NCBI GenBank assembly: GCA_024911895.1
Contig: GCA_024911895.1_3948.1
Source: a phage
Direction: 5' to 3' (one strand)
Length of the DNA: 64,000 nucleotides
Shown here: piece by piece, positions 1 through 15,003 of the stretch
Position numbering within the stretch: position 1 is the stretch's first letter
Layout: each line of letters starts with the position of its first letter
Notes under the pieces: generated by a model
What the model saw: the letters and a program-made list of their open reading frames with translations, nothing else
Told to the model about the DNA's origin: nothing
The model's database searches: none
Made by a program: the position numbers and the translations under genes

Positions 1-1050
1 AAAAAAATATCTGTCTAGGATGTATATCTGCTTGGTAGCCCTTAACATCTCCCTTACAAGTGCTTTGCAAAATTTTAAAATATCCTTAACAATCTCTTAA
101 CAGTTCTCACAAGCTCTTAACATCTCTTCAGAGGTCTTAACAGTTTCTTAACAGAACTAACAAGGGTGTAACAGTTTCTTAACAGTTGATACATAGACTT
201 TACAGAGTCTTAACAGATGACTAACAAGAGCTAACAAGTTAATTTTAAAGAGTTATTTTGTTAAGATAATTAACAAGTTCCTAACAAGTGTTTAACCTTT
301 TTAACAAGCTGTTAACATGGTCACTATCTCTTTTCTTATCGTTCCCTTTCCTTTCTTAGTGATTCTTTAAATAGCCCTTTTAAAAGCTCTGTATAGCTCT
401 GTATAGCCCCTTTTAAGTCTCTTCCTAGTAATTACACCCCAACTGTACAGACACCTCCTTATAGGGCTTTTCAGGAGCTTTAAAGGCTATGCCAAAGGCT
501 CTTACAAGGCTTTTACGTGGTTTTAACAGAGATTTAACAAGTTGCTAACAAGTGCCTTAAAAGCATAACTATTTAGGGATTGTTAAGAAATTGTTAAGAA
601 AATGTTAAGGGGGCTAGCATTTACGTAACTTTTAAGCTACTTTTAAGCAACTTTATAGCCCCTATAACATACTTTTAAGACACTAACAATAGGATTCGAT
701 AGATTCCTATCTCATAGCCCTTTTTAGTTATTCACAAGATACTAACGAGATAATAAAGCTTACACCCTTATAAGATTCTTTTAAGGCTCTGGGAAGCTTT
801 ATAAAGGGCTTTTAAGGGTGAGGTAATGCAATCCCTTAAGTTAGGTTGATAAGGCTGTTATAGGGCTTTATAGAGCGTTTAAATGGTTGCCCTTCCCTTT
901 CGGGTTATGGGCTTATATTTAAGTTGATTTGATAAAAGGCTATAGAGTAGACTATAGAGTTATTGCTTTTTAAGGTATGAGATAGATTCTGACTTGTTAG
1001 GGAGTCTTTAAGATTCTGGGAAGGGATTAGATAGACGTAAAAAAGCCCCT
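1..1050. repeat. ~1 kb AT-rich non-coding region packed with short direct and inverted repeats (TAACAG/TAACAAG iterons, CTCTGTATAG x2, CTATAGAGT x2, TTGTTAAGAAA-type x3, several CTTTTAAG)
   Basis: no ORF with a ribosome-binding site; about 16 copies of TAACA(G/A) between ~40 and ~320, many spaced 10-11 bp apart; inverted copies (TTGTTAAG) at ~581-612. Confidence 0.6.
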
Positions 1051-1101
1051 ATGATAAGGAGCTTTTCAGGTATCTGGGGCTATTTAGCCCCGCTGCGTCG
1101 A

Positions 1102-1350
1102 TTAGTTATAATCTTGCTTGTTGTAGTACAGGGAGACGATTTTTTCTCCCCAATAATGATAAGTATAACCATCCTTGAGAACTTCTTGTTTTGTTTCCTC
1201 CCAGAACTCATCCGAAGGATTATAATCTTTGATGGTCTGACTGATAAGACCTTTCACCATTTCAAAGGCGTTATCAGTACCTGCAATGTCAAATTTAACA
1301 TCCAGAGAGGAAAAACCGAACTCGTTAACAGTAGCGCGGATAGTTGCCAT
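1102..1350 (-). CDS. hypothetical early protein (82 aa)
   Basis: ORF whose ATG follows the conserved family-A leader (GGAG 8 nt upstream); no domain recognised. Confidence 0.55.
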   Translation of the reverse strand: MATIRATVNEFGFSSLDVKFDIAGTDNAFEMVKGLISQTIKDYNPSDEFWEETKQEVLKDGYTYHYWGEKIVSLYYNKQDYN

Positions 1351-1426
1351 TTTTGAATCTCCTAGTTTAAGGACTTTACTTAGTAGGGAGGTTATCCCTC
1401 CCGTTGATTAGTAATTTACTTGTTTT
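1351..1426 (-). repeat. family-A early cassette: hairpin GGGAGG..CCCTCCC plus conserved leader ending TAAACTAGGAGATTCAAAA-ATG
   Basis: near-identical ~80-bp unit also at 1912, 3134 and 4184, each directly upstream (minus strand) of a small ORF start codon. Confidence 0.7.
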
Positions 1427-1563
1427 GATATCTGATTGCAAGCAATTTTTTAAGCTTATCTATAAAGAATCTTTTAAGCTAATCCCTTTTAGATAAACCC
1501 CCTCGAACAAAGTTACCAATGTCAAGGGGTATTGTCAACACTTTTTAAAAAGTTTTTTGTAAG

Positions 1564-1911
1564 TTATTGATTAACTGATGAATATTTTTCAGGTTTTACA
1601 TAGCTGATACGCTGACTTTTTAGCAGGTCATCCCAGATTAACGCGGCGATATGGGCATAACCGGATTCACGTAAAAGTTTCATTGTTTTACTTCTCGTTT
1701 CAAAACGGCTTGCATAGTACTCACTATTCAGCGTCGTTTTATTCCCTTCGTTGTCTACATGGATAATCTGCATCACTTGAAAGGGGCTTGTGTCCTCGCC
1801 TTTGTTCCACTGCTCAAAGTATTTTAGGCACTGCATAGGTGACATCTTATCACTTACTTGAGTTGACCATGATGCGCCAGCTTTATCGGTAATTACGGTT
1901 ACATAAGCCAT
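1564..1911 (-). CDS. hypothetical early protein (115 aa)
   Basis: ATG directly after family-A cassette leader; no domain recognised. Confidence 0.55.
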   Translation of the reverse strand: MAYVTVITDKAGASWSTQVSDKMSPMQCLKYFEQWNKGEDTSPFQVMQIIHVDNEGNKTTLNSEYYASRFETRSKTMKLLRESGYAHIAALIWDDLLKSQRISYVKPEKYSSVNQ

Positions 1912-1985
1912 TTTTAGAATCTCCAGTTTAGGACTTTATTTAGTGGGGAAGGTCATTCCCTCCCCGTTGATTGACAATTTACAGA
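1912..1985 (-). repeat. family-A early cassette (hairpin GGGGAAGG..CCCTCCCC plus conserved RBS leader)
   Basis: sequence repeat shared with 1351, 3134, 4184; abuts the ATG of ORF 1564..1911. Confidence 0.7.
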
Positions 1986-2001
1986 TTTTTATCAGGCTTG
2001 T

Positions 2002-2235
2002 CTAGTCTTTTTCAATGATAATTTCATATTGACCGTCAACACTGTCGAAATAGATTCCATCGTCATCTTCTGTCTTAAAGTAGCATTGAATATCATCACT
2101 GGCGGGATAGTCTTGCCTTGCTATCTGGCAAACCTGAATAGCGTTTTCTTTACTCCCTGTAAACTCTTCAAGCCCTTTAAAATCGCATGAATGACCATTA
2201 CAAATTGAGAGGATAAGATAAATGGTTGTAAGCAT
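2002..2235 (-). CDS. hypothetical small Cys-containing protein (77 aa) with hydrophobic N-terminus, possibly secreted
   Basis: N-terminus MLTTIYLILSICNG; 4 Cys; preceded by hairpin 2253..2269 and AAGAGG RBS. Confidence 0.45.
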   Translation of the reverse strand: MLTTIYLILSICNGHSCDFKGLEEFTGSKENAIQVCQIARQDYPASDDIQCYFKTEDDDGIYFDSVDGQYEIIIEKD

Positions 2236-2301
2236 GATTTAAGCCTCTTAAAAGCCCCTGTGAGGGGCTAATCAGTGTTTATAAGGTGATTGCATAGGTT
2301 T

Positions 2302-2844
2302 TTAGAAAAAGCTTCTTAAATCTTTCTCTGTGATGTTTCCCGTTAATGTGTCCATGATGTCACAAAAAACCTGAATACTGTCCGACTGTTGAACACTTTT
2401 AACAAGTAGCTCTAATGTCTCCTCAAGATAGTTTAAATTTGGATTATCCAGTGAAGGAAGACAAAAAGGTGAAAACATTGCATTAAACTCGGTTACGTAA
2501 ACCTTTTTAATCCAATTTAAATCGAAGTATTCTGTAAAACTTGCTACGCCAGACATATTATCACAAGAATAATCATCATTTAGGTCATCCTCTGGGATAT
2601 CAAGTTCTAAGATAACAATATTTTGGGTTTTCATCTGGAAAGCTGCGGTGATAGCGGCATTACCTAGAGCCTGCTGGATACCTTCAGAGATTATTTCTTC
2701 CTCATCGTCGCCATAGATTTTATTTTCTGGATACACGTAAAAATTGCCGTCCATATCCGAACAATTCCATGCGCCTGATGGTTTATCACCGTTATTAATC
2801 AGGTTGAGGAAATTTTCTTGAGTAGTACCGTGAAAGCATTTCAT
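2302..2844 (-). CDS. hypothetical acidic early protein (180 aa)
   Basis: ATG after family-B leader; strongly acidic composition (runs of D/E). Confidence 0.55.
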   Translation of the reverse strand: MKCFHGTTQENFLNLINNGDKPSGAWNCSDMDGNFYVYPENKIYGDDEEEIISEGIQQALGNAAITAAFQMKTQNIVILELDIPEDDLNDDYSCDNMSGVASFTEYFDLNWIKKVYVTEFNAMFSPFCLPSLDNPNLNYLEETLELLVKSVQQSDSIQVFCDIMDTLTGNITEKDLRSFF

Positions 2845-2932
2845 TTTAGAATCTCCAGTTTAGGATTGAGTGGTAAAGCTCTTTATCTGGGGCTTACTTT
2901 ATCGAACTATAAGCCCCTTGTAAAGTACTTTA
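2845..2932 (-). repeat. family-B early cassette: hairpin GGGGCTTA..TAAGCCCC, palindrome AAAGTACTTT, leader ending AAACTGGAGATTCTAAA-ATG
   Basis: 88-bp unit essentially identical to 3642..3726 and 2 mismatches from 5845..5932; abuts the ATG of ORF 2302..2844. Confidence 0.7.
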
Positions 2933-3133
2933 TTAGTTATTTTTTACAACTTTTAAAACTGCAAGGTAACCTAAGCAATAAGAATCACCGAAAAGAGTCC
3001 TACCCATGAAAGAATCCTCTTTTATATCCTTTTCAGTGACGGTTTTTTCTACTCCGTGAAAAAGGACTATATCACCGACTTTGATATCTTTGATATGAGT
3101 AGTTTCAATGTTTAAACCGTTAATAATAGCCAT
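2933..3133 (-). CDS. hypothetical early protein (66 aa)
   Basis: ATG after family-A leader. Confidence 0.5.
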   Translation of the reverse strand: MAIINGLNIETTHIKDIKVGDIVLFHGVEKTVTEKDIKEDSFMGRTLFGDSYCLGYLAVLKVVKNN

Positions 3134-3212
3134 TTTTGAATCTCCTAGTTTAAGGACTTTACTTAGTGGGGAAGGTCATTCCCTCCCCGTTGATTAGTAA
3201 TTTACTTGTTTT
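3134..3212 (-). repeat. family-A early cassette; minus-strand TTGACA-18bp-TAAATT promoter-like element at 3199..3228
   Basis: repeat family shared with 1351, 1912, 4184; abuts the ATG of ORF 2933..3133. Confidence 0.65.
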
Positions 3213-3236
3213 AAAAACCAGTGTCAACAAAATTTT

Positions 3237-3641
3237 TCAGAGTTCTGCATAAATTGCATCGCAGACATCACGAAAATCATGATTTGTTAAATTACGTTGC
3301 AACCATGTTGCGAAAAAGTCAGCGATTGCAAAATTTGCGTCATACTCAACAGATAGCCACACTTTAACAGCAAAACGAAACATTTTTAAATCAAGCTCTT
3401 TATTCATTACCTTAGATTTGCCTAACATGTCAGACATCTCATGTTGTGCACCGTCTAGCGTGATACCTGCTGCAACGTCAGCCAGTGAGTTTTTTACGTT
3501 TTCAACGTCTAAGATAACACTTTGAATCTTCCCAATAATGTTTTGCAGTGTTTCGTCTGGCGCTGATGATGTGATAACATTAATCCGGTTAACGGTCAAA
3601 CGTGCTTTTAAGATTGATAACTCACGGTTATTAATAGCCAT
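3237..3641 (-). CDS. hypothetical early protein (134 aa)
   Basis: ATG after family-B leader. Confidence 0.55.
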   Translation of the reverse strand: MAINNRELSILKARLTVNRINVITSSAPDETLQNIIGKIQSVILDVENVKNSLADVAAGITLDGAQHEMSDMLGKSKVMNKELDLKMFRFAVKVWLSVEYDANFAIADFFATWLQRNLTNHDFRDVCDAIYAEL

Positions 3642-3726
3642 TTTAGAATCTCCAGTTTAGGATTGAGTGGTAAAGCTCTTTATCTGGGGCTTACTTTATC
3701 GAACTATAAGCCCCTTGTAAAGTACT
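3642..3726 (-). repeat. family-B early cassette
   Basis: identical to 2845..2932 over ~88 bp; abuts the ATG of ORF 3237..3641. Confidence 0.7.
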
Positions 3727-3999
3727 TTATGCTAAGTGTAATTTTTTACCTTTTACCATGATGTAACTTGATGCGTTATTACTGCATACATCTTGATAAA
3801 TTCTGCGCAAACGTCCTTCGTAGTATACTTTCCAGCTAGTTGGAATCTTTTTCCCGTATCCTGTAGCAGTTTTTTGCAGTCCTGCAAGTTGCCAATCCAG
3901 AATATGTTGTTCAGCTTGTAAATCCTCGAAGTGCATTACACCGTTCACATAGTGGCGTAGGGTTATGTTTAAAGTGCGACCGTTGTTAGTAGTGTACAT
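3727..3999 (-). CDS. hypothetical early protein (90 aa); start moved from the GTG at 4041 in the ORF track to the ATG at 3999
   Basis: ATG at 3999 is preceded by CTAGGAGCTTTTAAA, the conserved leader/RBS; position 4041 is GTG. Confidence 0.5.
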   Translation of the reverse strand: MYTTNNGRTLNITLRHYVNGVMHFEDLQAEQHILDWQLAGLQKTATGYGKKIPTSWKVYYEGRLRRIYQDVCSNNASSYIMVKGKKLHLA

Positions 4000-4024
4000 T
4001 TTAAAAGCTCCTAGTTTAAGGATT

Positions 4025-4183
4025 TTATTTTGACAATTCACTAATTAAGACATCAAAGATTATATCATTATCTGCTACAGTTGCAACACCAGTGATATAA
4101 TCAATTTCTAAGATAACAACAACTTTCGTACATAAACCATCATCTATATCATTCCAGACAACTTTATCACCTGCACAAAACAT
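4025..4183 (-). CDS. hypothetical small acidic protein (52 aa), below the ORF-track size cutoff
   Basis: own translation: MFCAGDKVVWNDIDDGLCTKVVVILEIDYITGVATVADNDIIFDVLISELSK; ATG directly after family-A cassette leader. Confidence 0.5.
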   Translation of the reverse strand: MFCAGDKVVWNDIDDGLCTKVVVILEIDYITGVATVADNDIIFDVLISELSK

Positions 4184-11447: not shown

Positions 11448-12557
11448 TTAGATTTCACGTTTACGTTGAGAGATAAGTTCACCAGCAGTGCCAACGATGA
11501 CATGCAAAGCTTCAGTCTTACCATCCCATGCTTTCAGCACTTTACGTTGATTATCAACGATTGCTGCAACTTCATAACGAGAGGAACGCATCTTCATATC
11601 GTTGTAATCAGTTGGTACGGATACAACATCTCGTGGATGGACACGAACCTTCAGGATGGTATCACCTGAGAAGCAACGAACATAATCCCAAGCGCCAACA
11701 TGAAGACCTTGAGAGCAAGTTACGTTACGGTTATTATCAACCATCCAACGTGGCATTTCTACAATGTTACCCAAATCATTAGGCACTTTGTAGGTGTGAG
11801 AGTCAACCAGCTTGCCTTCACGAGTAGAGACTTTCTTCCAACCAATGATGTAGCCCTCTTCATCAATTTCAACATCAAGGTGAGATACAAATCCCCAAAG
11901 TTGTTCTACAGAATCTTTAGATGGGTTTTCCATCAGTTTTTCGAAGAACATTACAAGTCGTTCAAAACCTTTATCACCAGTTTTCATCATGTGAAGAATA
12001 CGGTCAACCAGAGTAGAACGCATCTCAACAGCACCGTAGAATAGCTTGTCACCTTTGATTGTAATAGCACCCTGAGTGAAGTTTTCGATAGACTTACGAA
12101 TGTTCATTAGTTCAAATGCTTTCTTGAACTCACCTTTCACAACATGAACTACAATCTCTTGATAGTTTGGATGAGTAGACTCAACAATTTCAGATTCTGA
12201 ACCATAAGTCATAATTACAGAGTCACCAGTAATCATGTACTCAATCTTGTCATCTTTCTGCATAGCTTCGTGCAGTTTATTTACTGGAGCTTTCTGTACA
12301 GTCTCTTTAACGACCTTTTCAACTGGTTTGCCAGCTTTCTTTTTAAAAGTCTTAGCAACTTGCTTCAAAGTCTTCGTAGCTGGTGTAGAAGTTGCCTTTT
12401 TATTCCCTTTTAGGGTTGCTTCATGACGCTCTACAGCACGACCAACTGAACGGGTTGAAGTGTTAAATTTCTGTGCAATAGCTGTTTTGGTCAGCTTACC
12501 TTCTTTTACCAGTTTGTAAATTTCTGCGTCAATCTGTGCTTTAGTTTTAGTAGTCAT
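11448..12557 (-). CDS. rIIB: rIIB-like protein
   Basis: aligns by eye with T4 rIIB as recalled: LFYGAVEMRSTLVDRIL, CSQGLHVGAWDY, KVRVHPRDVVSVPTDYNDMKMR; lies directly downstream of rIIA. Confidence 0.75.
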   Translation of the reverse strand: MTTKTKAQIDAEIYKLVKEGKLTKTAIAQKFNTSTRSVGRAVERHEATLKGNKKATSTPATKTLKQVAKTFKKKAGKPVEKVVKETVQKAPVNKLHEAMQKDDKIEYMITGDSVIMTYGSESEIVESTHPNYQEIVVHVVKGEFKKAFELMNIRKSIENFTQGAITIKGDKLFYGAVEMRSTLVDRILHMMKTGDKGFERLVMFFEKLMENPSKDSVEQLWGFVSHLDVEIDEEGYIIGWKKVSTREGKLVDSHTYKVPNDLGNIVEMPRWMVDNNRNVTCSQGLHVGAWDYVRCFSGDTILKVRVHPRDVVSVPTDYNDMKMRSSRYEVAAIVDNQRKVLKAWDGKTEALHVIVGTAGELISQRKREI

Positions 12558-12602
12558 CTTATTACTCTCTCTTGTTAGTTAATCAATCAATTTGTGAGGC
12601 TA

Positions 12603-12632
12603 TTCTAAGGGGCTTTGAAGCCCCTTGTCAAA
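12603..12632 (-). promoter_or_regulatory. sigma70-like promoter for rIIB whose 18-bp spacer is a perfect hairpin (TTGACA-AGGGGCTTCAAAGCCCCT-TAGAAT on the minus strand)
   Basis: -35 at plus 12627..12632, -10 at plus 12603..12608; hairpin 12607..12626. Confidence 0.45.
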
Positions 12633-12636
12633 CACT

Positions 12637-15003
12637 TTAATCGTAAATTGTTGTACCTTCTGGAACACATTTCACATCAAAGCCTAAAAACTTACTCACT
12701 TCGATAGGTGATACTTTATTCCAATCTAAGTGTGAAAGCAAGAAGTTTTCTTGTTTTCTTTTTGAAAGATAGTTTGTCAGCTTAATGACCATACGGTCAC
12801 CAGCTTTCTTAATTTTCTTGTACAGCTTTGTATCATTGTCAAGGCACTCTTTCAAAGTTTGCAACCGACTAATAGTGTAAGTGTATGCAAACGGTGCAGC
12901 AACGTATTGGATTTTACCAAACATTGCCTCAACAGCATCTTCATTACCTTCTAAGAAGATAGTTTTGTTTGTGTCTCGTGAATAGCAATAGCCACGAGAA
13001 ATCTTCCTGTTATTGAACGTAAAGTTTCTGGCAATAATCCAACTGCTTGTAAGGTCAAGGACACCATTCATATAGATACGTGTCATATACCTGTTATGAT
13101 TAATCCAATGAACATCAGTTAAGCTGTCGTTCAAGAGTTTCTCATCTACTTCAATCCAGTCTTCTGGTATCTTTTTCCAATTTGCTTTTCGGAAAACATA
13201 GACTGTCTTTTCAATGACATTGGCAACTGACTTAGCTACATCTTCTGGAGATGAGCAAAAACATTCGCCATCAACTGTGTCACCTACTGCCTTAATATAA
13301 AGCTGAGGCTCTTCAATCGTGTCTAAGTCTTCTGACACCTCTTTGTATGAAGCTACACCTTCTGCTGGAACAGCTTTCCAGAGTTTTACAACACCTCTTA
13401 CAGCTTCTTTACGCTGGTAATGGTGTTCCTTATCAGACATCTTCACAATCTTTAACAAGCTTTTATCAAGTTTGTGCAGATTGATTAGGTCGTCTAGCTC
13501 TTCCTCATTAGAGAATACAAAGACAATACCATTGTATCTGTGAAACAGACTTGACTCGCTGGCATAGTCTCGACATGCACCACGCAGAATCTGATTGCGT
13601 CCTACAGTCTTCTCAGTACCATTTTTATTGCGACGGTCATTTATAACAAACAAAAACTGTTCAATTTGACTTTTACGCATTGCGCCAAATATATTGAACA
13701 TACTTGCCTCTTGAGTGTAGGAAAGCGCTGTTGCACGAATCTTACTCTCTAAAGAGTTAAACTTAACATAAGCAACTGGATTATAAAGATAATCTACTTT
13801 AGGGATGTTGTTTCCGTTCCTATCAACCTTAATATTACCTTTACCATCACGTTCATAGATAACTGAGCCGTCTTCTGCGTAGATAATTCCACGACGAATG
13901 TTTAGTAATTCTTCTTCCAGAGAATCAAGCTTAACGCCTCCCCACTCTAGCTTTGGACACACAGCATTAAACATCTCTCGTGAGTTCAAACGTAACTCAG
14001 CATAAGCCTGTGCAGCATCCATGAGTGTAGGTTGGCTATTAACTTTCTTGATAACATCCTTTGTAATGGCTTCAGTTATCTTTTTAGTAGCCTCAATGAT
14101 AACATTTTTTGTCGTGTCATTCATCTGCAATGCTTCACGAGAAGCTGCAATAGCAACTGAACCAATAGGCATGTAGATGTTTACAAGGTCTACGCTCCTA
14201 CGGAAAAATTCTGGCAATACTTTGAAGAAATCATCTCCAAGTAATGCTTCCATGTTAACAGGGTAGGCAATGTTACCCATCACCACATTAAACTCTGTTC
14301 TGTTAGCGCCAGAACGCCAGCTTTGCTTATGAATCATGGCATCATAAACACCTTCTTCACGGGCAATGACGTTCATATCTGCTAATACATCGTCGTACTC
14401 AATATTACTTTCTGGTTTTACAGTGAAGTATGAGTACACATTCCCAGCTTCTTCAAAGAACTTTGAGATACGGTGGTCAGCAACTGCCACACGTACAGCT
14501 AAACCATTAGGTTCTTTTGTTGGGTTAGTTGTCAGCTTAGTTACTTGAGGGATACCATTCTCAAGATAAACAGAGTACTTATTAACAACACCGTCAACAT
14601 AGCTAGATACTGTGAATGACTGAGCAATTGCAAATGGTGACTTTGAGCCGATACCCATTGCACCAATGTAGTCATTAGAGTCATTCTTCGTAGAAGCTCC
14701 ATAGTTTAGGTACAAACTCATAACTTTATCATGAGTCAATCCAGTTCCAAAATCACGAACTTCGAAGTAAGGCTCAAAACGAGTAGGTAAATGCACATGG
14801 AATGGAATGTTCTCTTTTCCAGCTTCTTTCTGAGCATCTACTGCGTTACATGACAGTTCACGAATCACTGCCCTTTCTTTAAAGGTGTATACACCAGAAC
14901 TCAAAAGGCTGAACATCTCAGGTGTCATTGTAATCTGTGCTTGAGACGTCTCTAAAGAAGTTGAACTCTTAATCACTTCTGCGTGGTCATTTACCATGCG
15001 CAT
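12637..15003 (-). CDS. rIIA: rIIA-like protein with N-terminal GHKL/HATPase-like domain
   Basis: AVIRELSCNAVDA, EVRDFGTGL, SNDYIGAMGIGSKSPF match the T4 rIIA N-terminus as recalled; 788 aa. Confidence 0.75.
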   Translation of the reverse strand: MRMVNDHAEVIKSSTSLETSQAQITMTPEMFSLLSSGVYTFKERAVIRELSCNAVDAQKEAGKENIPFHVHLPTRFEPYFEVRDFGTGLTHDKVMSLYLNYGASTKNDSNDYIGAMGIGSKSPFAIAQSFTVSSYVDGVVNKYSVYLENGIPQVTKLTTNPTKEPNGLAVRVAVADHRISKFFEEAGNVYSYFTVKPESNIEYDDVLADMNVIAREEGVYDAMIHKQSWRSGANRTEFNVVMGNIAYPVNMEALLGDDFFKVLPEFFRRSVDLVNIYMPIGSVAIAASREALQMNDTTKNVIIEATKKITEAITKDVIKKVNSQPTLMDAAQAYAELRLNSREMFNAVCPKLEWGGVKLDSLEEELLNIRRGIIYAEDGSVIYERDGKGNIKVDRNGNNIPKVDYLYNPVAYVKFNSLESKIRATALSYTQEASMFNIFGAMRKSQIEQFLFVINDRRNKNGTEKTVGRNQILRGACRDYASESSLFHRYNGIVFVFSNEEELDDLINLHKLDKSLLKIVKMSDKEHHYQRKEAVRGVVKLWKAVPAEGVASYKEVSEDLDTIEEPQLYIKAVGDTVDGECFCSSPEDVAKSVANVIEKTVYVFRKANWKKIPEDWIEVDEKLLNDSLTDVHWINHNRYMTRIYMNGVLDLTSSWIIARNFTFNNRKISRGYCYSRDTNKTIFLEGNEDAVEAMFGKIQYVAAPFAYTYTISRLQTLKECLDNDTKLYKKIKKAGDRMVIKLTNYLSKRKQENFLLSHLDWNKVSPIEVSKFLGFDVKCVPEGTTIYD

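Follow-up and report, generated by a model that had tools for sequence, protein, structure and literature searches.

Short repeats within and beside the direct terminal repeat of Felix O1-like phages as putative docking sites for DNA packaging

In this study, we analyzed a 64-kb stretch of phage DNA (hereafter the window) and observed that positions 34-614 at its gene-free left end correspond to the direct terminal repeat (DTR) of related phages. The short repeats in and around the DTR are most likely docking sites, still putative, for the DNA-packaging machinery. On balance, we favor the view that window 1-1050 represents most of the concatemer-junction or packaging-recognition region, in which the iterons would serve in recognition. 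By similarity search, the window belongs to a Felix O1-like myovirus (Felixounavirus). Window 1-3000 matched 258 phage records, nearly all of them from Felixounavirus (~87 kb), with identities of up to ~90%. Felix O1-like phages are widely used in typing, biocontrol and therapy directed at Salmonella and E. coli, and most of their database records are opened at an arbitrary point. That the group has a DTR has been published, though only in the form of bare lengths; in the searchable papers we found no description of the repeat families relative to the borders, of their phasing or of conservation throughout the subfamily. A literature search for a Felixounavirus transcriptome retrieved none, and no mention of the region was found in the PhageMaP preprint on Bas63. 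The region is a useful detail and an element of an ordinary kind.

Neither strand of window 1-1050 carries an open reading frame of at least 30 aa. The first-pass annotation had described a gene-free stretch of 1 kb; the absence of genes holds, but the true length in relatives is ~1.6 kb, of which window 1-1050 is the right two thirds, clipped by the start of the window. The missing ~570-600 nt to the left are visible in relatives only. The equivalent stretch is 12306-13927 in Felix O1, between ORF23 and ORF24, and 2432-4070 of locus L001 in tootiki. According to the annotation of relatives, the flanking gene blocks are convergent, both being transcribed toward the gene-free stretch, and each ends in a hairpin with a T-run. 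The terminator of the left block lies ~560 nt before window position 1, as judged from relatives. On the right, an intrinsic-terminator-like element on the minus strand (1031-1090), consisting of two hairpins of which the second is followed by TTTTTT, closes the minus-strand gene block (fold of 1025-1100 on the minus strand, -14.5 kcal/mol, z = -3.5). A terminator is annotated at the matching position in Moogle and Mordin. This element was missed by the promoter/terminator scan because of its long loop and was seen by folding. The first gene to the right (1102-1350, minus strand, 82 aa) is transcribed toward the DTR and marks the edge of the region, lying outside the element itself. It is homologous to Felix O1 ORF23, which is listed among the virion proteins (PMC3185647). 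The genes neighboring the region encode small proteins (PHROG 4559) without a Pfam match. The 82-aa protein was considered as a co-conserved end-binding protein and set aside, since its positional counterpart in Kolesnikvirus is not clearly homologous (16-18% identity). The large terminase gene (TerL) was searched for and is absent from the 64 kb.

Genome ends and conserved borders

The DTR is 581 bp long in the window (34-614, plus strand), with borders at 33|34 and 614|615 that were placed from the record ends of relatives and from PhageTerm results. Records of D4 and Ro111lw begin and end with identical copies, of 581 bp and 613 bp, respectively, that correspond to window 34-614; the record of the Kolesnikvirus SPARTY has identical ends of 439 bp. 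The records of NBEco004, EcSzw_1, D4, CRP22 and Ro111lw begin or end exactly at window 34. When 34-614 alone was used as query, ZX4221, D4, I14.1, H12, E9, GE_vB_7A and CRP22 began or ended at the borders among the best 60 matches. Altogether, window 34 (+/-2) or 614 is the first or last base of at least 10 independent records, deposited by different laboratories. The same query matched 278 places in 253 records, so that ~25 records hold two copies. The window holds a single copy, as expected because 64 kb covers part of a genome of ~87 kb. Read-based analysis is in agreement with these ends: PhageTerm reported a DTR of 613 bp for Ro111lw (PMC6454146), of 581 bp for Pr103Blw (PMC8303462) and of 439 bp for SPARTY (PMC8928762), as well as DTRs for D4 and its companion phages (PMC11737134). 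Ro111lw and SPARTY were classed as 'DTR, similar to T7' (PMC6454146; PMC8928762). For Felix O1, short terminal repeats were inferred from the pulsed-field gel size compared with the sequence length (PMC3185647). One record is discordant: Fifi318 starts upstream of the TerL operon, away from the DTR site. It is described as arranged by PhageTerm, in a paper that gives no coordinates (PMC11984208).

Window 34-614 is thus the DTR of relatives, and this, together with the published termini (PMC6454146; PMC8303462; PMC8928762), strongly supports the packaging site suggested in the first-pass annotation. By comparison with these relatives, the termini of the phage from which the window derives are predicted to lie at 34-614 as well. 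A headful pac site, which would give circularly permuted, terminally redundant genomes, was rejected, since many records share the same fixed, non-permuted end positions.

Both borders are near-invariant and read TGTATATCTGCTT|GGTAGCCCTTAACA on the left and ATGTTAAGGGGGC|TAGCATTTACGTAAC on the right. Window 1-33 comprises the last 33 nt of the left flank, with the outer cut-site motif TGTATATCTGCTT at 21-33 (plus strand). Among 18 relatives, window 21-40 is 100% identical and 581-640 has an identity of 0.91-0.95. The exact motif TGTATATCTGCTT is unique within the 64-kb window and directly precedes the repeat in the Kolesnikvirus genomes SPARTY, ST-3 and Fifi318. The left end of SPARTY follows TTGTATATCTGCTT|, which matches the motif at window 21-33, and its right end reads AAATGTAAAAGTGGC|TAACC...CGTAAAT, compared with AAATGTTAAGGGGGC|TAGCATTTACGTAAC in the window. 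Both border motifs were found in 33 distinct sequences from four genera, including three Kolesnikvirus genomes. An internal decoy of the right border, AACAAGGGGC|TAAC, was set aside by a stricter pattern. Read inward from the cuts, both ends start alike (GGTAGCCCTTAACA on the left, GCCCCCTTAACA on the bottom strand of the right), and each border has an inward-facing TTAACA iteron, 8 nt from the cut on the left and 6 nt on the right. Because these spacings differ, the two-fold symmetry of the borders is only approximate. With the cut motifs (left TGTATATCTGCTT|GG; right GGGGGC|TAGC) any Ounavirinae genome can be oriented from its sequence alone.

Across the 33 sequences, the border-to-border length is 439 in Kolesnikvirus and 570, 580, 591, 602, 613, 623 or 633 in the other genera, with outliers of 638 and 658. 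These lengths change in steps of ~10.5 nt, seen in the alignment as indels of 11 and 22 nt. The steps could be mere slippage of 11-nt units rather than the result of selection for phase.

Repeat families and their conservation

The copy numbers expected by chance were estimated in two ways, from the remaining 63 kb and from 500 shuffles that preserved dinucleotides. TAACAR occurs 23 times in window 1-1050, against 1.9 expected. About 20 forward iterons with the sequence (C)TTAACA(G/A) or CTAACAAG occupy 42-320 on the plus strand and follow a period of 10.3 bp (Rayleigh R = 0.84, compared with a maximum of 0.79 in 2000 random sets that were scanned over the same periods). Because this 10.3-bp phase is kept, the forward iterons lie on one face of the helix. 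Three further forward iterons lie at 523, 534 and 545 (521-556, plus strand), where the number of units varies among relatives by 11-nt indels. Intrinsic bending of the region was also considered and dropped, as the AA/TT periodicity is not exceptional.

Three inverted iterons abut the right DTR border (580-612, minus strand): TTGTTAAGAAA at 580-590 and 591-601 and a degenerate third copy, ATGTTAAGGGG, at 602-612. They have a period of 11 and are 86-95% complementary to the forward iterons; Tandem Repeats Finder reports 579-609, period 11, with 95% matches. The reverse complement of TTGTTAAG is the iteron, CTTAACAA. This triple is the only run of inverted copies and stops 2 nt before the right cut; in Si3 the inverted array has five units. 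Relatives show that the forward iterons extend into the left flank, from about -460. No second iteron cluster was found elsewhere in the 64 kb.

The first-pass annotation had made its reading of the region depend on conservation among relatives; such conservation extends over three genera and, in part, to a fourth. The alignment comprised 18 relatives from Felixounavirus, Mooglevirus and Suspvirus. The TAACA/TGTTA cores have a mean identity of 0.96 compared with 0.82 for the rest of the DTR (p ~4e-12), and the 6-mer TTAACA/TGTTAA reaches 0.97 against 0.82 (p ~2e-15). The identity of the inverted triple at 580-612 is 0.94-0.95. In the same 18 relatives, TATAG cores are more conserved as well (0.90 vs 0.80, p = 0.04), and the conservation of CTTTTAAG is not significantly different (0.86 vs 0.80). 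In the Moogle- and Susp-viruses, the DTR with its right flank is 78-82% identical over 79-100% of its length; for the neighboring genes, the identity is 69-74% and covers only part of each gene. The Kolesnikvirus repeat aligns over window 63-145 only and has the same layout, with forward TTAACA copies in the left part of the repeat and inverted copies before the right border; its right flank carries a different motif, TTAGAAG, in nine forward copies. A scan of IMG/VR with the left cut-site motif returned 78 stretches that split cleanly. Thirty are Ounavirinae loci with 10-23 forward TAACA copies downstream (at least 19 where the full 650 nt are present), and the remainder are chance matches with 0-2 copies. 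What is conserved in this iteron cluster, which adjoins the cleavage site, is the motif rather than the sequence as a whole.

All five repeat families named in the first-pass annotation are present at the stated positions, each enriched over chance. Describing them as several independent families went too far, as TTGTTAAGAAA is the inverted iteron, CTCTGTATAG and CTATAGAGT have a common core and the second AGATTCTGGGAAGG lies in a non-conserved stretch. CTCTGTATAG is found at 387-396 and 397-406 (Tandem Repeats Finder: 385-407, period 10, 100% matches), with no further copy in the other 63 kb of the window. Most relatives read CTCTATAG at 387-406, in two or three units, which is the exact reverse complement of CTATAGAG; the latter has two copies (940 and 952) and none elsewhere in the window. 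CTATAGAGT occupies 940-948 and 952-960: both copies of the reported tandem are there, but with a spacing of 12 nt they are not strictly tandem. CTCTGTATAG and CTATAGAGT contain one common TATAG core in opposite orientations. A global switch in orientation of the TATAG-core family at the right border was considered and dropped because the motif is too palindromic.

CTTTTAAG was found at 410, 629, 640, 672, 778 and 809, and its variant CTTAAAAG at 556. Against these 7 copies, the remaining sequence of the window predicts 0.33, and the 500 shuffles gave 0.30 +/- 0.51; CTNTATAG has 6 copies against 0.2-0.4 expected. Two copies of a AGATTCTGGGAAGG-like sequence had also been reported. The full motif is present at 1011-1024 only and the 'first copy' has TCTGGGAAG alone in common with it, whereas TCTGGGAAG itself does occur twice, at 788-796 and 1015-1023 (0.02 expected).

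Along the region, these families are arranged in segments of different conservation. The iteron-poor center of the DTR (321-520, plus strand) contains a pyrimidine tract (341-356), the two CTCTGTATAG units (387-406) and CTTTTAAG at 410-417. Segment 615-690 (plus strand) opens with TAGCATTTACGTAAC, just outside the right border, and continues as a CTTTTAAG/CTTTATAG array with a period of 11 nt, which is expanded in relatives by units of 11 or 33 nt. A variable, hairpin-like insert, GGATTCGATAGATTCCTATCTCATAG, follows at 690-716; it is found in the window and UAB_Phi87 only, has an identity of 0.18-0.36 and probably lies outside the functional core. An imperfect inverted repeat at 763-820 (26-nt arms, 73% complementary; identity 0.87-0.98) combines CTTATAAG with CTTTTAAG units and the first TCTGGGAAG. 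At 849-960 (plus strand), TATAG(A/G)G units (849-881 and 940-960) surround a conserved element, GCCCTTCCCTTTCGGGTTATGGGC (888-911). Identities are 0.93-0.94 for 861-880, 901-920 and 941-960, and folding of 870-925 gave no significant structure (z = -1.6). The last segment (981-1024, plus strand) is variable and gapped in most relatives and comprises an inverted iteron (CTTGTTAG, at 993) and AGATTCTGGGAAGG. The second TCTGGGAAG copy falls within the 40 nt that show the lowest conservation in the region (identity 0.28-0.39).

A packaging model and competing explanations

Starting from the termini, from the conservation of the borders and from how the iterons are phased, conserved and oriented, all documented above or in the literature, we infer a binding partner, a nicking geometry and a duplication step. 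Concatemers would contain a single 34-614 copy per junction, between the left and right flanks, and after packaging a copy would be present at both chromosome ends. The ~20 phased iterons may load a putative sequence-specific DNA-binding partner of the large terminase, and the loaded array would form a one-faced nucleoprotein filament or wrap. The oppositely oriented border iterons could then position the nuclease, so that nicks would fall at 33|34 in the top strand and at 614|615 in the bottom strand. Strand-displacement synthesis from the nicked 3' ends, as in the T7 model, would duplicate the repeat and leave both daughters with a full copy. In the unique flank, the CTTTTAAG and TATAG arrays probably act as accessory elements of the junction, either for binding or as spacers. 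TerL of Felix O1 is of the T4 type (Terminase_6N/6C). No small terminase subunit is annotated in Felix O1 and none is recognizable in the group; directly upstream of TerL, Felix O1 has a 66-aa ORF (ORF51) without a known domain. The iteron map provides concrete targets in the search for the missing recognition subunit, and aids the design of engineered or transducing derivatives and the choice of safe insertion sites.

A more far-reaching and tentative proposal is that the Ounavirinae as a whole possess a self-contained, gene-free packaging platform of ~1.5-1.6 kb for a terminase that lacks a conventional small subunit, on which ~25 phased 8-bp iterons inside the DTR would recruit a putative DNA-binding protein that cuts both borders as one complex; the same array might double as an origin. 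The DTR length would then change in whole helical turns because a single complex, as proposed, measures and cuts both borders.

Alternatively, the phased TAACA iterons might constitute a replication origin, in which initiators would bind next to an AT-rich patch used for unwinding; that the iterons lie in the DTR would then be coincidental or reflect dual use. We regard an origin, as alternative or as second function, as less likely than packaging, although phased iterons are just as characteristic of origins. The origin proposed in the first-pass annotation fits insofar as ~20 direct repeats on one helical face are the classic architecture of iteron origins. Furthermore, an AT-rich patch (60-85, GCAAAATTTTAAAATATC) lies within the sole block that also aligns with Kolesnikvirus, and the region is strongly conserved and, in the promoter scan, transcriptionally quiet. 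However, this one 25-nt patch is the only AT-rich element near the iterons, and the units have ~8-bp cores at a spacing of 10-11 bp, unlike iterons of 17-22 bp. DnaA boxes (TTWTNCACA) occur at chance frequency (8 in 64 kb vs 10.9 +/- 2.7 expected; one in the region), and no initiator-like gene is recognizable beside the region. Moreover, packaging accounts for two features that an origin leaves unexplained: the iterons change orientation where the cut site lies, and their domain stops exactly at the right border.

The other alternatives are less likely than an origin. The arrays might be by-products of replication slippage and recombination at genome ends, in which case the two border motifs alone would be functional and the rest would be filler between convergent terminators. 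Consistent with this, the arrays gain and lose units of 11, 22 and 33 nt, small palindromic inserts shift their place, and two segments are poorly conserved (681-720 and 981-1020, identity 0.18-0.39). Filler would hardly explain, however, why conservation is far higher in the iteron cores than in the intervening spacers, why the TTAACA motif and its layout persist in Kolesnikvirus, a genus whose repeat otherwise hardly aligns, or why, among distant relatives, the region surpasses the neighboring genes in conservation. We consider filler improbable.

Even less probable is a signal for DNA ejection or the handling of ends, either resembling the injection stop of T5 or providing sites for a virion protein that protects the ends. 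Phage T5 has a repeat-rich, non-coding injection-stop region inside its terminal repeat, and the stretch described here is likewise non-coding, rich in repeats and palindromes and located at the chromosome ends. In addition, the adjacent gene (1102-1350) is the homologue of the listed virion protein ORF23 (PMC3185647). However, its 82-aa product has no detectable DNA-binding domain, and the iterons are conserved in Kolesnikvirus even though the counterpart there has an identity of only 16-18%. There is also no known case of two-step DNA transfer in Felix O1-like phages.

A cluster of promoters and/or genes for small non-coding RNAs, both raised in the first-pass annotation, is the least probable reading: sigma-70-like sites are as frequent as in shuffles (8 vs 6.8 +/- 2.8), both neighboring operons point inward and terminate before the region with none leading away, scans found no Rfam match at E <= 1 and no tRNA, and the one fold that stands out besides the minus-strand terminator, 885-1030 on the minus strand (z = -3.1 relative to shuffles; CCCTTCCC at 890-897 pairs with GGGAAGGG at 1017-1024), is kept inconsistently, its stem being present in about two thirds of the 13 relatives checked (z -0.5 to -3.9), while the other 13 of the 14 test folds are unremarkable (z +0.2 to -2.2).

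Comparison with known systems

The T7 junction reportedly has a 160-bp repeat flanked by the short-repeat arrays SRL and SRR. As in T7, the ends are fixed and non-permuted, the repeat is non-coding and a few hundred bp long, and short reiterated motifs lie in and beside it. Unlike T7, the phage is a myovirus whose large terminase is of the T4 type, with no small subunit identified, and the repeat is 3-4x longer and is located between convergent operons rather than upstream of early promoters. Furthermore, the iterons lie inside the repeat, are helically phased and are inverted at one border.

In P1 pac, hexanucleotide elements occur in groups to either side of the cleavage site, where they presumably load the recognition subunit. 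Clusters of short motifs flank the terminase cleavage point in both systems. However, P1 packages by headful and is permuted, whereas the ends here are fixed, the same repeat is duplicated and there is no GATC methylation motif. The R-sites of lambda cosB and the pacL/pacR boxes of SPP1 are binding sites of the small terminase subunit and number 3-7. They share with the iterons the phased copies of a short sequence beside a nicking site, and the DNA is bent or wrapped there for the terminase. The sites in lambda and SPP1 bind a known small subunit, in contrast to the ~25 copies described here, which are putative binding sites.

The iteron origins of plasmids and lambda ori also have direct repeats on one helix face with an adjacent AT-rich patch. 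The units described here are shorter, DnaA boxes are not enriched, no initiator gene is seen nearby and the array ends at the packaging cut. Finally, the long terminal repeats of the Staphylococcus Kayvirus (phage K group) are said to be bracketed by short inverted repeats. Similarly, oppositely oriented copies of one short motif mark the repeat borders in the Felix O1-like phages, although the Kayvirus repeats span several kb and contain genes, whereas the repeat described here is non-coding and measures 0.44-0.66 kb.

Variable elements within the terminal region

Alignment of the relatives showed that the iteron array, which comprises about 20 forward TAACA-type iterons at window 42-320, is interrupted in some phages by the 22-nt palindromic insert TAGGGATTGGTAACAATACCAA. 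This insert was found at three distinct sites that vary by phage, aligned after window position 179 (uvig24527 and uvig29875), 239 (UAB_Phi87) and 261 (ekra and uvig24527), and in every case it adds two helical turns. A hairpin-like element, GGATTCGATAGATTCCTATCTCATAG, is located at window 690-716 and was detected at this position only in the window and in UAB_Phi87, as judged from the same alignment. Near-identical copies are present elsewhere, namely within the left terminator of Moogle and close to the right terminator of SUSP1. GGATTCGATAGATTCCTATCTCATAG looks like a small element that is mobile or prone to recombination. Further to the right, the inverted repeat CCCTTCCC / GGGAAGGG (window 890-897 and 1017-1024) has arms about 120 nt apart, and their pairing is retained in about two thirds of the relatives despite the variable sequence between them. 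The minus-strand fold of 885-1030 gave a z of -3.1.

Record starts and assemblies

The window starts 33 nt left of the left terminus that is conserved in the alignment of relatives, and its positions 1-2 read AA, whereas 15 of the 18 aligned relatives carry TG. Therefore, the source record seems to have been opened close to, but not at, the physical end. The record of Erwinia phage Fifi318 (PQ051114) starts upstream of the operon of the large terminase (TerL), despite its described arrangement by PhageTerm (PMC11984208), and its terminal-repeat region lies at ~75.8-77.2 kb. In addition, a similarity search identified a Felix O1-like segment with 88.5% identity to the window in the 147-kb record GU169904, named 'Staphylococcus phage SA1'; this record probably represents a chimera or a mixed assembly.

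Neighbouring genes and intergenic cassettes

TerL is not encoded within the 64-kb window. In Felix O1, the 66-aa ORF51 (locus L027, 6404-6604; PHROG 4397) is located directly upstream of TerL and has no known domain. Its position marks it as a candidate for the terminase recognition subunit that is missing. The 82-aa protein encoded on the minus strand at window 1102-1350 is homologous to ORF23 of Felix O1, whose product was listed as a virion protein on the basis of mass spectrometry (PMC3185647). The 82-aa protein matched PHROG 4559 (function unknown) and no Pfam domain, and the Kolesnikvirus gene at the equivalent position showed no clear relation to it. Cassettes of ~80-115 nt are located between many of the minus-strand genes (window 1340-1426, 1906-1990 and 2839-2955, with more up to ~7 kb), and the copies share 81-96% identity. 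In the first type (1340-1426 and 1906-1990), the hairpin GGGAGG..CCCTCCC precedes a ribosome-binding site and a start codon. Intergenic direct repeats were noted in Felix O1 (PMC3185647), and the cassettes of the window are probably their counterparts.
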